The position numbers were made by a program, and so were the translations under genes. 16,916 bases of DNA from a virus, in UHGV virus genome UHGV-0071988. One strand, written 5' to 3'. Shown one piece after another: positions 1 through 15,204 of this stretch; position 1 is the stretch's first letter; each line of letters starts with the position of its first letter. The notes below the pieces were generated by a model. It worked only from the letters and a program-made list of their open reading frames with translations, was not told the DNA's origin and ran no database searches.

Positions 1-465
1 TGTATGAGTCGACGGGGTAGCAACCCCCCCCCCCCACGGACCATACTTGATAACCAGTTCCGCTATGTTCTTTCGAACATATGCCATTTTCGCGCGCATA
101 TTGCCTGAGATCTGGCTTGCTGATACCTGAACAAAACCATGCTTATCTTCCAGACCGGACACCCTGCAACGCTCATCTCCGCTATCAAAATCCGTTCCGT
201 TATGCAGTTGGTTAAACCGTACTTCGTCGTATACCGTCGTTTCACAGGGCAACACATACACCGCAGCATGCGTTATTCCCAACTTACGTAGCGCCTTCGT
301 CCTTTGGTGTCCCGCCACCAGCAAATCGCCGCGCACTATCAATGGCTTCACAAGCCCCAGCTCCCTGACGCTTTCCGCCAGCCTCGCAAGATCATCCTCA
401 CCGATAAAACGCGGGTTATATTCCGCGCCGCGTAGGTGCGTTATGTCGTAATTGAGGTGAAGCAT
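1..465 (-). CDS. ParB-like nuclease domain protein, second tandem copy (3' end beyond window start)
   Basis: Minus-strand ORF with ATG at 465-463, open through position 1 (about 155 codons; absent from ORF track because it has no in-window stop). Translation MLHLNYDITHLRGAEYNPRFIGEDDLARLAESVRELGLVKPLIVRGDLLVAGHQRTKALRKLG fits the ParB N-terminal pattern. Its ATG overlaps the upstream stop (TGATG, 467-463). Confidence 0.55.
   Translation of the reverse strand, partial: MLHLNYDITHLRGAEYNPRFIGEDDLARLAESVRELGLVKPLIVRGDLLVAGHQRTKALRKLGITHAAVYVLPCETTVYDEVRFNQLHNGTDFDSGDERCRVSGLEDKHGFVQVSASQISGNMRAKMAYVRKNIAELVIKYGPWGGGVATPSTHT
24..35. repeat. Homopolymeric C12 tract (G12 on coding strand) inside the truncated ParB-like ORF
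   Basis: Twelve consecutive C at 24-35; encodes W-G-G-G-V in the minus-strand frame. Confidence 0.9.
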
Positions 466-1088
466 CAGCACACCTCCCCAGCCAGCAATGCGGATACAAA
501 TCCGATATAGCTGCCATTATCATCAACATAACGAGATACCGCGCAGTCAAAACGATCCGCTTCCTCATCCGTTGCCGGGATTTTATGGCTTCCAAATGAC
601 AGGTACTGAACTTTTACGCCTGATTTGGCCTCATCCTTCTCAAATGGGATATCCATACCCTCTGTGTCATCGCAGACCGCCGCACTCAATAAGTTATCCA
701 GTTCGCGCTGAGTAAAACCAATTGAGTCCAGAGCAAAATCATCGGCCGCAAGATCTGCAAGCTCCGCGCTTAACAACTCTTCATCCCAACCAGCATTCAA
801 CGGAATACGGTTGTCGGCCAGACGATATGCCTTCTTCTGATTCTCCGTTAGCCCTTCCAGAACAATGCAGGGAACATCATCCATCCCCAACTGAGTGGCC
901 GCAGCAATTCGACCATGACCAGCAATTACAACGTTGTTCTCGTCTATCAGGATCGGATTAGTCCATCCGTACTCCTGTATGCTGGCAACAATCTGATCTA
1001 CCTGCTCCACGGAGTGTGTGCGAGCGTTCTTTTCATAACCAATCAACACAGAAAGTGGTAAAGAAACCACATTAAGATGTTTTGTCAT
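465..1088 (-). CDS. ParB-like nuclease domain protein (207 aa)
   Basis: Complete ORF; segment ILIDENNVVIAGHGRIAAATQLGMDDVPCIVLEGLTENQKKAYRLADNRI matches the ParB N-terminal domain pattern (GxGR box). Acidic C-terminal half. Weak SD upstream. Confidence 0.75.
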   Translation of the reverse strand: MTKHLNVVSLPLSVLIGYEKNARTHSVEQVDQIVASIQEYGWTNPILIDENNVVIAGHGRIAAATQLGMDDVPCIVLEGLTENQKKAYRLADNRIPLNAGWDEELLSAELADLAADDFALDSIGFTQRELDNLLSAAVCDDTEGMDIPFEKDEAKSGVKVQYLSFGSHKIPATDEEADRFDCAVSRYVDDNGSYIGFVSALLAGEVC

Positions 1089-1330
1089 GCCGTTTATCCG
1101 CTAAAATCCCCTCGCTTGTGCAAGCAAGTGGGCCTCGGTTTGTATCCACGGCACCCTGTGGGTATGAATGACTGTCGTCAGGTCGCAACTGACGGCGGTC
1201 GCCCACCTTCCAGTAATAAAAAAGCCACCAGCATTAACTCCACAGCGATCTGGAGTTAATGAGGCAGCTTTGGTTTGCGCATTATCGCAGCCCCTGGTAA
1301 GCACAAGAGCTGCTGTAATGCTAAAAAACA

Positions 1331-1356
1331 AAACCACCCGCAGGTGGTTTTATAAA
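1331..1356 (-). terminator. Intrinsic terminator (hairpin AAACCACC-cgca-GGTGGTTT flanked by A/T runs; strongest on minus strand)
   Basis: Perfect 8-bp inverted repeat at 1331-1350; the minus-strand transcript has a U-run after the stem (reverse complement of ctaaaaaaca). Sits just downstream of the 1380-1787 gene. Confidence 0.6.
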
Positions 1357-1379
1357 TAAATAGCAAACAGGTATCTGCA

Positions 1380-1787
1380 CTAATCAGATAAACCAAACTT
1401 CTTCTTTGCCAATGACTTGAGAAGTTCTACACCAACATCCTTCATAACAGCCAATGGCTCATTGCTAATTTCTTTTAGTCTAGCGAAAACATCTTTGCTC
1501 TCTAGTGCACAGGCAAAATCCTGTCCCTCTGTAGTCAATCTAATATCTACATCAACAGTCCTCATTCCTGCCCAAAAATTAACATAGCCAAGACGCAGAG
1601 GATCACGCGTTTCCATCTTCATATTGCTGATAAAACCTTGCTCAATCAATTGCATATAATGAAACATGCCCTTTTCTGAGGCTATATCAAACCCCGCGTC
1701 TCTTAGTTGATTTACTGTTATGAACGTGCTTTCTGAATCCAAAAACACAGTCAGCATCTTTTTTAGATAATCCAGATCGGTGCGCAT
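1380..1787 (-). CDS. Hypothetical protein (135 aa), AT-rich
   Basis: ORF with strong SD (TAAGGAGGgtaaaATG) placing the start at MRTDLDYLKK (internal ATG of the track ORF 1380-1823). No family recognised. Confidence 0.65.
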   Translation of the reverse strand: MRTDLDYLKKMLTVFLDSESTFITVNQLRDAGFDIASEKGMFHYMQLIEQGFISNMKMETRDPLRLGYVNFWAGMRTVDVDIRLTTEGQDFACALESKDVFARLKEISNEPLAVMKDVGVELLKSLAKKKFGLSD

Positions 1788-1873
1788 TTTACCCTCCTTA
1801 AATGGAACGCAAATGTTACACAACCTTTAAAAAAGACACATTGTTTTATTTATGCCTCATTTTAATCGACCAA

Positions 1874-2026
1874 TTACTGCCCAAATTTATCAATAAATAA
1901 TTGCTCCCGCTTACGCCGAAAAGCTCTCTGCGCCACTAAGATGCGCCACAGGACACCAGCAATAACCACCAGCGAGAAACAAAACCACATGGCCATAATC
2001 ACCAGAAAAATGCCAAGACCATTCAT
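1874..2026 (-). CDS. Small hydrophobic protein (50 aa, one predicted TM segment, basic C-terminus)
   Basis: ORF below the track's 60-aa cutoff: MNGLGIFLVIMAMWFCFSLVVIAGVLWRILVAQRAFRRKREQLFIDKFGQ. ATG overlaps the stop of the upstream 68-aa ORF (TCATGA). No clear SD. Confidence 0.3.
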   Translation of the reverse strand: MNGLGIFLVIMAMWFCFSLVVIAGVLWRILVAQRAFRRKREQLFIDKFGQ

Positions 2027-2229
2027 GAAACTATCCATTCTTCAATGAATATCTCCATTAACATCAAGAGATACGCCGCACCCAGCGCGGTTCCTGTCGA
2101 TATAGCTAAGACAAACCTCAAAGATAACGAGGTGTCTTTCGCTTTTACCCATACACAAAAGCCTGCTAGAAATACCAATAAATTTCTTATTGGAGGAAGG
2201 AACCAGAACAAATCACTCGGCATAAGCAT
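2023..2229 (-). CDS. Small membrane protein (68 aa)
   Basis: Hydrophobic ORF (LFWFLPPIRNLLVFLAGFCVWV ... ALGAAYLLMLMEIFI). Start taken at the second ATG (GGAAG 6 nt upstream). Overlaps the 3' end of the 99-aa gene by 17 nt. Confidence 0.35.
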   Translation of the reverse strand: MLMPSDLFWFLPPIRNLLVFLAGFCVWVKAKDTSLSLRFVLAISTGTALGAAYLLMLMEIFIEEWIVS

Positions 2230-2512
2230 GATCATCTTCCGCTGCTGATTTACACGCCGCAGTTACTGATATATTGATAACCGGTGCGCTAATCGTGATG
2301 GACGACTCTGTCGGTTGACTCGATATAACTGAACGATGGCTATCAATGAAGTCCACAATCTCATTCAGGCACTCTTTAGCTGCCTCATCGTGACTTTTTC
2401 CGTATGCTTCATGGAGGACTTTCATCCTCATCATTGCTCCATCACACATCATCGAAAGCGCGTAAAGCACATCACTAATCGCCATTTCTTTTTTGGTGCT
2501 TGTCGAAGGCAT
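2213..2512 (-). CDS. Hypothetical protein (99 aa)
   Basis: ORF with SD AAGGAG 8 nt upstream of ATG (MPSTSTKK...). Start lies about 25 nt downstream of a strong terminator, so there is no room for its own promoter. Confidence 0.55.
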   Translation of the reverse strand: MPSTSTKKEMAISDVLYALSMMCDGAMMRMKVLHEAYGKSHDEAAKECLNEIVDFIDSHRSVISSQPTESSITISAPVINISVTAACKSAAEDDHAYAE

Positions 2513-2536
2513 CCCATGTTCTCCTTTGTCTGGATG

Positions 2537-2563
2537 TAAAAAAGCCTCGGCAATTGCCGAGGC
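2537..2563 (-). terminator. Intrinsic terminator (20-nt palindrome GCCTCGGCAATTGCCGAGGC plus U-run on minus strand)
   Basis: Palindrome at 2544-2563 followed, in the minus-strand direction, by a 7-nt U-run (plus-strand A-run 2537-2543). Located between the 73-aa gene and the 99-aa gene. Confidence 0.65.
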
Positions 2564-2586
2564 TCGTTGTTCGTTATCGTTACGGT

Positions 2587-2808
2587 TTAATGCTCGCGTC
2601 GTCCGGCGACAACTTCGGATTTGTATTTCAGGTCGCCCAGCAAGAATTGCAGTTTAAGCATCTTTGCCGCCGTGTAGTTCCCTGATTCCACAACCTCTTT
2701 CATGAGGTCATAAACGGCCGCTACATCATCAGCCAGGAACTCTTTGCGTTGCTGCTCTGTCGCACGTTTGAAGGAAATACGCATTACTTTACGGTCTTGT
2801 TCTTTCAT
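2587..2808 (-). CDS. Small basic protein (73 aa), possibly ribbon-helix-helix DNA-binding
   Basis: ORF with SD GGAGA 8 nt upstream. N-terminus KVMRISFKRATEQQRKEF resembles a beta-strand followed by a helix (RHH-like); this is tentative. First gene behind duplicated promoter copy A. Confidence 0.6.
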   Translation of the reverse strand: MKEQDRKVMRISFKRATEQQRKEFLADDVAAVYDLMKEVVESGNYTAAKMLKLQFLLGDLKYKSEVVAGRREH

Positions 2809-2815
2809 CGGGTTA

Positions 2816-2925
2816 TCTCCGGTTTAACCAGGGCGGGTATCGCTCGGTTTCGGGTATAACCTTAGGAAATTTTTTCCCACTTGTAAAGCGCTTTTTATAT
2901 AAATCTATAATTATATAATTCTATA
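2816..2925 (-). promoter_or_regulatory. Duplicated promoter/leader element, copy A (TTTACA-N17-TAAGGT plus upstream AT-rich palindromic site and shared 5' UTR)
   Basis: Near-identical (3-4 differences by eye) to 9538-9647. Minus-strand -35 TTTACA = 2882-2887, -10 TAAGGT = 2859-2864, 17-bp spacer. Leader ends in SD GGAGA before the 73-aa gene. Confidence 0.55.
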
Positions 2926-3532
2926 CCGCTTGCCAGAGAGCATCATGCAACTGGATACCTCCATTGCACTGGTTGCCCCAGCCATGCCAGCCATCAGGTA
3001 AATCACCGCGAGCAAACAGCTCAATACGAGGAACATCACCTAACAGCCTTACCAGCTTGTCACGAACCACATCAGGCTTCCGAGAATGCTCCAGACGAGG
3101 CGATGTAAACGACTGAATGATCCCCGCATCAAGGCGGGTCGGCAATTTGCCTTTTACCGCAAACAAGCAATCTTCACTGTTTGCACGAGTCATATGCCCC
3201 ATCCCCATCACCAGCTTATCTGGTTGTCGGCTACCACATTTGTTCCATGTGAAGCCCTTCATGGTCATCAGCCTGAATCCCCATGCTTTCACCACCAGCA
3301 ACGCTTCTTCTGGCTGAGTCGGAACCCACCACATGGCCAACAAACACGATTCAGGATTAGCAAGCTGCCAGACAGGAATACGAGCAATATCCTCAGCTTT
3401 CATCGTTGGATACTTAAAACCAGCGCCACGATTCCCATCCTTACACTTGTCTTTGTATTCCCAGGGGGGATCTGCATAAATCAGATTAAACAATGCAATT
3501 GCCTCCATGTTAGTTGTGTCTCCGGCAGTCAT
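2921..3532 (-). CDS. DNA N6-adenine methyltransferase, MT-A70 family
   Basis: Motif NLIYADPPWEY (DPPW catalytic motif) followed by YPTMKAEDIARIPV and LLAMWW, typical of MT-A70-type phage adenine MTases. Start is uncertain: ATG at 3532 (MTAGD) or 3508 (MEAIA); the track's 3643 start adds an implausible hydrophobic extension. Confidence 0.8.
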   Translation of the reverse strand: MTAGDTTNMEAIALFNLIYADPPWEYKDKCKDGNRGAGFKYPTMKAEDIARIPVWQLANPESCLLAMWWVPTQPEEALLVVKAWGFRLMTMKGFTWNKCGSRQPDKLVMGMGHMTRANSEDCLFAVKGKLPTRLDAGIIQSFTSPRLEHSRKPDVVRDKLVRLLGDVPRIELFARGDLPDGWHGWGNQCNGGIQLHDALWQAV

Positions 3533-3803
3533 AACTCTGGCCAGCTCTACAGCAAACACAACGAAAAGGGCACTAACCAGACTGATTAATGCCCTTGCCT
3601 GTTGTGTGCCGGATATCGCCCGACAACGCTGTTTTGGTAACACGGCTACAGTTCCGTGCCGCTCCAGCTTTTACCCCTTTGCGGATAACAGGCCCTGCCT
3701 GTAACTTAGCCCCACGTTCGCCCGAAATGCGCACCAGGCACGCATAAAGATGAGCACGAAGGAAGTAACTCCACCGCGCTTATCTTTATGTGTGAGAGTG
3801 AAT

Positions 3804-3879
3804 TGGTGGCCCCTACCGGATTTGAACCGATGACCGTGCGATTATGAGTCGCCTGCTCTAACCACTGAGCTAAGGGGCC
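3804..3879 (-). tRNA. tRNA with anticodon CAU, tRNA-Ile2 (lysidine-type)-like; 76 nt including encoded CCA
   Basis: Minus-strand sequence GGCCCCTTAGCTCAGTGGTTAGAGCAGGCGACTCATAATCGCACGGTCATCGGTTCAAATCCGGTAGGGGCCACCA folds as a cloverleaf (7-bp acceptor stem, D-arm GCTC/GAGC, anticodon loop CTCATAA, T-loop TTCAAAT). Acceptor stem and D-arm match E. coli ileX as recalled from memory; Met isotype not excluded. Confidence 0.85.
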
Positions 3880-4018
3880 ATATTTGATCTGTTTGTCTGG
3901 TGTGGCGCCGCGCACGAAAACCCCAGCCAATAAATTCAGGATTTTTGGGCGCGGCGGCATATCAGACAAACATGGTTGATGCGTGCGCTCATGAGAAAAG
4001 CGCATAGAATGTTGTAAC

Positions 4019-14667: not shown

Positions 14668-14689
14668 AAAAAAGGCCCCCGAAGGGGCC
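14668..14689 (-). terminator. Intrinsic terminator, minus-strand oriented (GGCCCC-cgaa-GGGGCC plus U-run)
   Basis: Hairpin at 14674-14689 with A6 on the plus strand at 14668-14673, giving a U-run after the stem for a minus-strand transcript. No U-run in the plus direction. Confidence 0.55.
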
Positions 14690-15204
14690 TAATCGCTACT
14701 TGCTGCTAATGTTTATCGTCACATTCAGAGCGTTATCAGTAATCTTCCAACCCTCTCCATGTGGCGTAAACAAAGCTCCAGTAACAACGATCAAAATACA
14801 TACGTATTTCCTCATTGTATTGGCCCTCGCAGGCCGTTTCACGGCATCTCCACCGACGAAAATGACGCGAGAGCAAGCACACCGCTTGTGCTTGCGTGTA
14901 CGGCAAGTGGATGATCCTTTCCTTAAAGTCGGTGCCCGGGTGCGAATCGGCGAAAAGGCCCCAAGCCATATTACACGTCCTCGCCTTCATAATGAAGGAA
15001 TAACAAATGCTTTTATTACATGTAATTACATCCGAAGAAGTTAAAAAACTTCATTCTGCATGAACTAAGGAACTAAATTTCTTTATATGAATAGTGGACT
15101 ATTCACCTCAGTTGAGTAAGAATAGATACGCCGCTTGTGCTTGCGTGGTTGTTTATACAACGACGTTATGCTGAAAGGACCGCGAATCCGATCAGCACGA
15201 AAGA

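Follow-up and report, generated by a model that had tools for sequence, protein, structure and literature searches.

The stretch of DNA examined here is the 16,916-nucleotide window of the virus genome UHGV-0071988, at the beginning of which (positions 1 to 1088, minus strand) lie two adjacent genes, called ORF1 and ORF2 below, whose products both carry a ParB-like N-terminal fold. ORF1 is a stand-alone ParB-fold protein, and ORF2, when completed from near-identical relatives, is a ParB-methyltransferase fusion that is kept together with an ORF1-type protein over great evolutionary distances. We propose, with a probability of about one half, that the two proteins make up a late-expressed module, controlled by nucleoside triphosphate (NTP), that methylates replicated phage DNA before packaging. 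Both genes fall into families already described, and the fusion architecture has been on record since 2025. The literature searched contained no mention of the obligate pairing, of single-chain fusions, of the probable third ParB fold or of the exchange of partners on one type of adaptor.

Two coupled genes with ParB folds

The features of the two genes and their junction are listed here by window position.

465..1088, minus strand: ORF1, 207 amino acids (aa) with an ATG start; stand-alone ParB/Srx-fold protein
1..465, minus strand: ORF2, first 155 codons of a 457-aa protein, ATG at 465..463, open to window position 1; this part holds the ParB N-domain (residues ~2-90) and the beginning of a middle domain
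463..467, minus strand: TGATG stop/start overlap of ORF1 and ORF2, with one base common to both codons
473..477, minus strand: GGAGG ribosome-binding site (Shine-Dalgarno) for ORF2, within the 3' end of ORF1
909..923, minus strand: Box II motif AGHGR of ORF1 (residues 56-60), family-invariant; pairs with AGERR of M. xanthus ParB
301..315, minus strand: Box II motif AGHQR of ORF2 (residues 51-55), invariant in 110 homologues; pairs with AGERR of B. subtilis Spo0J
1..35, no strand: divergent window end

A preliminary description of this DNA had reported two adjacent, translationally coupled genes with ParB N-domains, and that arrangement is confirmed by direct reading: the plus strand at 463-467 is CATCA, i.e. 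TGATG on the coding strand, and the GGAGG sequence, likewise read directly, is separated from the ORF2 ATG by 7 nt. The end of the window requires some caution. Positions 1-35 differ from every near-identical relative by several coding-strand T-to-G changes, the homopolymer found there is a 13-base C run on the plus strand, and these bases are probably a low-quality contig end, which makes the last ~10 codons of the ORF2 fragment unreliable. The reading frame of ORF2 is unbroken despite this divergence.

ORF1 belongs to phrog_620 (E 1.4e-73 against the PHROG profiles) and matches the Pfam family ParB_N with E 2.2e-5 and 24.8 bits, slightly below the cut-off of 26.3 bits. The profile of its family, which comprises at least 7031 hits, matches M. 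xanthus ParB in the PDB (1.2e-6), and its AlphaFold2 (AF2) model, with a predicted local distance difference test score (pLDDT) of 76, retrieves Noc, ParB, PadC and KorB from the PDB by Foldseek (~1e-6, probability 1.00), with Srx and SerK also among the structural matches. Four parts are distinguished in the protein: the ParB N-domain (~1-93), helices (103-138), a disordered linker (138-158) and a small C-terminal domain of a beta-hairpin and two helices (161-203). Invariant throughout the family are H25, AGHGR (56-60), ADN (91-93) and W101. Alignments to M. xanthus ParB and Noc place R23 (Box I), R60 (Box II) and N93 (Box III) at the phosphate-binding positions of the nucleotide pocket; R23 and R60 align with R54 and R95 of M. 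xanthus ParB, and D92-N93 with the E-N of Noc. The positions of hydrolysis are changed, N21 standing for the Box I Gln and H58 for the Glu of GERR. The fusions of ParB with N6/N4 DNA methyltransferases begin with a module that is clearly homologous to residues 11-155 of ORF1 (PADLOC PDLC03229, 5e-38; phrog_498, 1.7e-50).

Only residues 1-155 of ORF2 are seen in the window, and its methyltransferase part was read from relatives that are 97-99% identical in DNA. Beyond the window, where the preliminary description had allowed for a disrupted gene, ORF2 is an intact 457-aa protein in 66 Escherichia coli replicons (at least 80% of the region covered) and four phage records. The ParB part matches Pfam ParB_N (E 5.2e-6, 26.8 bits), the family profile matches B. 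subtilis Spo0J (6sdk) at 3.8e-8, and the full-length protein matches phrog_5475 from end to end (1.6e-265). In the full-length sequence ParB_N covers residues 7-68 and Methyltransf_23 (PF13489), a class I SAM (S-adenosylmethionine) methyltransferase domain, residues 231-398 (7.9e-8). The search for a C-terminal fusion that had been recommended was thus positive, and the general remark that phage ParB domains are often fused or paired with DNA-modification enzymes applies closely, ORF2 being itself a ParB-methyltransferase fusion.

An alignment of 110 members of the fusion family reveals which positions are under the strongest constraint. In the ParB domain Y16, R19 and AGHQR (51-55) are invariant or nearly so, the two nucleotide-pocket arginines R19 (Box I) and R55 (Box II) being invariant; at the hydrolysis positions stand N17 (Box I) and H53 (the GERR position). 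HMMER and hhalign left the Box III helix unaligned, although the asparagines N85 and N89 do not vary. Both ORF1 and ORF2 keep the arginine of the Box II motif GxxR, and the catalytic Glu of the canonical GERR is His in both; "nuclease" is a historical label for ParB-like proteins, a superfamily in which no agreed catalytic motif sets nucleases apart. In the methyltransferase the SAM motif DFGxG (243-247), E266 and D305 are invariant or nearly so, which argues for an active enzyme, and judged by its sequence the methyltransferase looks active. Two arginines near the SAM site, R269 and R270, are conserved as well. The AF2 model of the fusion is of high confidence (pLDDT 95, predicted template modelling score, pTM, 0.90).

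Between these two domains the fusion keeps a block of the form GPWGG...GEVIH(C/A)AQYALA in the same 110 members. In the AF2 model the secondary-structure elements of residues 110-189 repeat those of 2-90 at a constant offset of ~106 residues, and the middle block matches the ParB core of ORF1 weakly, in register, with HxAQ in the place of GHxR (E 0.0095, probability 4%). A comparison of the profile of residues 1-100 with that of 101-200 found no internal repeat, and the profile of the middle region had no match in the PDB at E values up to 10. Since both of these searches were negative, the middle region is considered only tentatively as a second, degenerate ParB-like domain.

The fusion family is large: more than 771 clusters match at 90% identity, and an exhaustive profile search, with clusters formed at 50% identity, gave 311 of E 1e-30 or lower. 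Its members are very uniform in length (~455-490 aa) and come from hosts as different as Enterobacteria, Bradyrhizobium, Bacteroides and Brochothrix, and only 7 of 50,697 deposited phage genomes contain the fusion. NCBIfam holds no curated family for ORF1 or ORF2; in a PADLOC scan the ParB module of MTase_II was the sole match, and no known defence system was recognised.

The preliminary description had regarded the two genes as a tandem duplication. A recent duplication that left redundant paralogues would agree with the ParB N-terminal fold in both products and with the position of the genes side by side. It is refuted by the distance between them: the ParB domains are 28% identical over 74 aa, the proteins belong to separate PHROG families with different architectures, and the pairing is ancient, so that the chance of a recent duplication is next to nothing. 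The two family profiles are distantly related (hhalign probability 96%, E 1.7e-9, 25% identity over 76 columns). The true paralogue of ORF1 is a third ParB gene of the same element, 48% identical over the full length and with the same C-terminal domain.

Conservation of the pair and exchange of its partner

To what extent do the two genes depend on each other? From IMG/VR 77 loci were recovered in which the fusion is 32-100% identical, and 69 of them retain its N-terminus. An ORF1-type ParB gene lies directly upstream on the same strand in all 69. The two genes overlap by 1-32 nt in 58 loci, are separated by 1-10 nt in three and by 207-750 nt in eight. The arrangement, which had been called unusual, is hence present in at least 69 viral contigs. 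A ParB gene of ~200 aa also lies immediately upstream of the fusion homologue in all five of five diverse genome or metagenome contexts; a Serratia locus likewise combines an ORF1-type ParB with a ParB-methyltransferase, and in Bacteroides phage BS-TP3 (35% identity) the ParB gene, with a 4-nt overlap, the fusion, the small terminase (TerS) and the large terminase (TerL) follow one another. The pairing is therefore ancient and is kept down to 32% identity of the fusion.

In two clusters, P0376 (658 aa) and P0381 (659 aa), an ORF1-type protein is joined to the front of a complete ParB-methyltransferase in one natural chain. The ORF1-type part aligns with ORF1 from the ParB core (residue 12 or 31 onward) through the C-terminal domain (hhalign probability 96%, E 2.9e-9). 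Such Rosetta-stone fusions are a classic sign that the two proteins act together.

The surroundings of the pair are also recurrent. Among the 58 loci with enough sequence, at least 33 have a large terminase gene 3' of the pair, in the same orientation and at a median distance of 1 kb. Detection relied on five seed proteins and is incomplete: a Pfam check of ten missed loci recovered five terminases of other Pfam families and one portal gene and left four loci without assignment, so the true terminase fraction must exceed 33/58. The downstream terminases belong to GpA, Terminase_6, TerL_ATPase and Terminase_3. Of the 77 related loci only 5, all of one lineage at 90% identity or more, have an MT-A70 methyltransferase gene no farther than 6 kb from the pair; this enzyme, which had been brought into connection with the ParB-like genes, does not qualify as a general partner. 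Other genes adjoin the pair in single loci. An Acb2/Tad1-like anti-defence gene adjoins it in L006, and Amidoligase_2 and GGACT/AIG2-like genes do so in two unrelated loci (L010 7381-8973; L004 10054-15404), lying between pair and terminase in L010.

In intact prophages, proteins of the ORF1 type are also combined with other enzymes. In L093 and L096 (Citrobacter and a metagenomic contig) such a ParB gene overlaps a TET-associated glycosyltransferase gene (TAGT, PF20691), and in L094 (Yersinia enterocolitica) it overlaps a gene of the Mom family. These loci occupy the same slot, after lysis and before terminase, with the enzyme in place of the fusion. Over the first 63-72% of ORF1 their ParB proteins, members of the same subfamily, are 56-62% identical to it. 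They differ from the pair described here in that the downstream enzyme has no ParB domain of its own and in that the C-terminal part of the ParB is different, which suggests that this part is matched to the partner enzyme. Many ORF1 homologues with varied C-termini were also seen in E. coli chromosomes (L091, L092, L097-L100), in truncated prophage remnants right after a trkH-like gene, where the downstream partner gene is deleted.

The architecture of full-length ORF2 (PF02195 with PF13489, corresponding to phrog_5475) is exactly that of the ParB-Methyltransf_23 fusion listed as phage-enriched in a 2025 survey of ParB-CTPase folds from the Le laboratory (PMC12704722), and it is found in prophages and phages alike. 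That survey assigns no function to this fusion and terms its domain a predicted DNA methyltransferase, a class that our structure searches do not support. ATP binding is reported there for ParB-CTPase folds that are joined to SAM-dependent methyltransferases of bacteria; an obligatory ParB gene upstream, single-chain fusions, the position before terminase and a second ParB-like domain are not mentioned in the passages searched (PMC12704722). Our search of the literature for a ParB-methyltransferase fusion family under that name or its variants found nothing.

A close parallel is the phage thymine dioxygenase 5mYOX176, which requires its cognate stand-alone ParB176, a protein without a DNA-binding domain (PMC13229309). 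ParB176 consists of a nucleotide-binding domain, a helical segment, a disordered linker and a C-terminal domain, and the AF2 model of ORF1 has the same layout. ORF1, too, is a stand-alone ParB with no detected DNA-binding domain, encoded beside an enzyme gene. The partners differ: 5mYOX176 is an Fe/2-oxoglutarate dioxygenase, whereas here the enzyme is a SAM methyltransferase with its own ParB domain or domains. ParBc proteins also co-occur with the phage DNA carboxymethyltransferase CmoX (PMC12783734). Compared with the ParB-N6/N4 fusions (phrog_498, PDLC03229, B. cereus Bce_0392), ORF1 has only their N-terminal module and no methyltransferase, and the methyltransferase of ORF2 is Methyltransf_23-like and, unlike those enzymes, has neither an N6_N4_Mtase domain nor DPPY.

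The element that carries the pair

In Yersinia phages vB_YpM_39/41/44 and in E. coli phage vB_EcoM-613R2 the region recurs at 97-99% identity; it also matches 72 complete E. coli genomes, 73 of the 76 matches being on plasmids. The listed carrier plasmids, among them that of ATCC 25922, measure ~46-52 kb, except for one record of 94 kb. The element is a circular phage-plasmid of ~48 kb and of the myovirus type. One carrier plasmid was mapped; it encodes RepA, ParA with a small downstream partner, and a RelE/ParE toxin-antitoxin pair. Genes on one strand follow in the order early genes, holins and endolysin, tRNA, MT-A70, small ORFs, a DUF2513-like gene, ORF1, ORF2, a 239-aa gene, a gap of 558 bp, the third ParB, TerS, TerL, portal, head and tail. 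The pair therefore does not stand at the end of a late-type transcription unit, as had been supposed; the lysis cassette precedes it, and TerS, TerL and the genes for portal, head and tail follow on the same strand. Other features of the region are given below by window position or, for the two genes outside the window, by position in related loci.

1089..1327, no strand: intergenic region 5' of ORF1, with a perfect 11-bp inverted repeat at 1232-1261
1328..1353, minus strand: intrinsic-terminator-like hairpin and T run, 3' of the upstream DUF2513-like gene
2921-3643, minus strand: MT-A70 methyltransferase ORF, 240 aa from a GTG start
3804-3879, minus strand: tRNA with anticodon CAU
14668-14963, minus strand: ryfA RNA, Rfam match above the gathering score
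16120-16192, plus strand: isrK, Rfam match above the gathering score
16217-16305, plus strand: C4 antisense RNA, Rfam match above the gathering score
L003 15748-16338 and L002 2199-2789: third ParB gene, 196 aa, outside the window, ~2.7 kb beyond it
L001 144-863 and L003 16896-17615: 239-aa gene, phrog_1924 "minor tail protein" (3.9e-97)

The stop of the third ParB gene overlaps the start of TerS. In addition to its real partition locus with ParA, the element thus encodes ParB folds in at least three genes; that ParA lies ~12 kb from the pair, next to the regulatory region and with its own small downstream gene. The 239-aa gene stands between the fusion and the third ParB, remote from the tail genes, and the non-coding gap of 558 bp on its 3' side could contain the packaging site or a promoter. 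The spacer 5' of ORF1 measures 290 bp, and the hairpin at 1328-1353 probably separates the DUF2513-like gene from the ParB pair. A scan of window positions 1-4000 for sigma-70-like promoters gave no match on either strand, compared with 6.2 +/- 2.5 in shuffled sequence. For the MT-A70 gene RefSeq relatives annotate 195 aa, and its first ~45 residues are in another frame in IMG/VR relatives. ARAGORN classifies the CAU tRNA as tRNA-Met, whereas PGAP annotates it as tRNA-Ile in a near-identical plasmid; a lysidine-dependent tRNA-Ile2 is possible. The C4 RNA is presumably of the P1/P7 immunity type, which would fit a phage-plasmid lifestyle.

Proposed function, rival explanations and significance

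What function could the pair perform? In the reading that we prefer, ORF1 would be the adaptor or activator subunit and ORF2 the catalytic subunit, both made late in the cycle from one translationally coupled message and acting as a complex. Binding of ATP or CTP to the ParB folds would control assembly or activity, or would target the methyltransferase. The substrate would most probably be phage DNA that has been replicated and is about to be packaged, and the progeny genomes would be marked or protected. Phage DNA is favoured on analogy, as ParB proteins of this subfamily also accompany Mom, TAGT, methyltransferases and dioxygenases; considering that the methyltransferase is unlike any known DNA methyltransferase, we infer this substrate and do not claim it as established. 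The domains, the motifs, the pairing, the natural single-chain fusions and the exchange of partners are observed, whereas the complex, its control by NTP and its purpose are, like the substrate, deduced from them. It is also conceivable, with considerably less confidence, that a heteromeric nucleotide-gated assembly of three ParB folds, one of them degenerate, brings a non-canonical methyltransferase onto phage DNA near packaging and leaves a mark unlike 6mA, 4mC and 5mC, ORF1-type ParBs being an exchangeable loading or activating subunit for Mom, TAGT, methyltransferases and dioxygenases. We regard this extended scheme as unlikely.

Several points weigh against the methylation of phage DNA under nucleotide control. 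In canonical ParB the Gln of Box I and the Glu of GERR are the residues of CTP hydrolysis (PMC13229309), and their replacement by Asn and His in the pair means that hydrolysis and clamp cycling may not occur. Mutations of the ParB nucleotide-binding site had little effect in the thymine dioxygenase system (PMC13229309). Pfam detects no helix-turn-helix (HTH) domain in ORF1 or in full-length ORF2. The 457-aa protein has no (D/N/S)PP(Y/F/W) or DPPY-type motif and not a single PP dipeptide, and the nearest relatives of its methyltransferase in sequence and structure are small-molecule, tRNA and cap methyltransferases. The Brochothrix phage homologue (27% identity) has no ORF1-type gene annotated upstream, and no experiment on the family was found in the literature searched.

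Because the methyltransferase resembles small-molecule and tRNA enzymes, the strongest rival is a substrate other than DNA: a nucleotide or small molecule (for example one of host immune signalling or a metabolic nucleotide), an RNA, or a protein of the phage, for instance one that takes part in packaging. The ParB/Srx folds would then be nucleotide- or substrate-binding domains as in sulfiredoxin and SerK and not DNA clamps. On the one hand, the relatives of the methyltransferase and the absence of a DNA-methyltransferase motif speak for this possibility; full-length ORF2 has no match to PF01555 (N6_N4_Mtase), and no DNA methyltransferase is among its top structural matches. The fusion domains are packed rigidly as one body (pTM 0.90), R269 and R270 are conserved near the SAM site, an Acb2/Tad1-like gene adjoins the pair in one locus, and the ParB fold does ATP-dependent chemistry in Srx and SerK (PMC12704722), both proteins being among the structural matches of ORF1. 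On the other hand, ORF1-type ParBs pair with established or predicted DNA modifiers, namely Mom, TAGT, N6/N4 methyltransferases, 5mYOX and CmoX (PMC13229309, PMC12783734), and the position of the genes before packaging suits modification of progeny DNA. A target other than DNA is hence a serious possibility, although clearly a less probable one. A direct role in packaging, in which the ParB-like proteins would assist terminase as nucleases, as nickases or by recognising a site, much as HNH endonucleases do in some cos phages, has the gene order in its favour. In at least 33 of 58 loci a large terminase gene of the same orientation comes after the pair, five of ten further loci sampled have a large terminase of another family, and the third ParB gene, an ORF1 paralogue, overlaps the small terminase gene in the element; the ParB-methylase Bce_0392 of B. 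cereus is reported to nick DNA, as cited in PMC5512222. Such a role leaves the invariant and apparently active methyltransferase unexplained, however, and the downstream terminases come from several unrelated families, which argues against a specific protein partnership. Moreover, the same slot can hold Mom or TAGT genes, whose products are not packaging factors, and the interval between lysis and terminase appears from the loci studied here to be a common site of accessory genes. A literature search for a link between ParB-like nucleases, the small terminase and packaging found no paper. A packaging function is accordingly judged improbable.

It could also be asked whether these are plasmid partition proteins that stabilise inheritance of the phage-plasmid, as the plasmid location of most E. 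coli matches (73/76) to this ~48 kb circular element and the label "chromosome (plasmid) partitioning protein ParB" in some deposited records would imply. The N-terminal fold and the Box I and Box II arginines are indeed common to canonical ParB/Spo0J, Noc and KorB and to both ORF1 and ORF2, and the Box III asparagine is present in ORF1. The differences prevail: no ParA gene is adjacent, and the element has its own ParA with a small gene ~12 kb away; GERR is GHGR in ORF1 and GHQR in ORF2, with Asn for the Box I Gln; neither protein has a Pfam HTH or C-terminal dimerisation domain, and no ParA-binding LG(K/R)GL motif is seen at either N-terminus; their TIGR00180 scores are 31 and 16 bits against a cut-off of 58.45 bits. 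In addition, the same pair occurs in integrated prophages and in non-plasmid phages. Partition is therefore very improbable and, together with recent duplication, essentially excluded.

ParB domains, both stand-alone and fused, have long been seen beside phage DNA-modification genes, and the activation of such an enzyme by a ParB protein was first shown in 2025-2026. The labels "partition protein ParB" and "nuclease" that these genes carry are probably wrong. The pair offers a compact and widespread test case that is at home in E. coli, for example on a plasmid of ATCC 25922: ParB folds are present in both adaptor and enzyme, the genes are always coupled and occasionally form one chain, and adaptors of this family also serve alongside Mom and glycosyltransferases. 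Its study could reveal what role ParB folds play for modifying enzymes, and whether a methyltransferase that resembles small-molecule enzymes acts on DNA.

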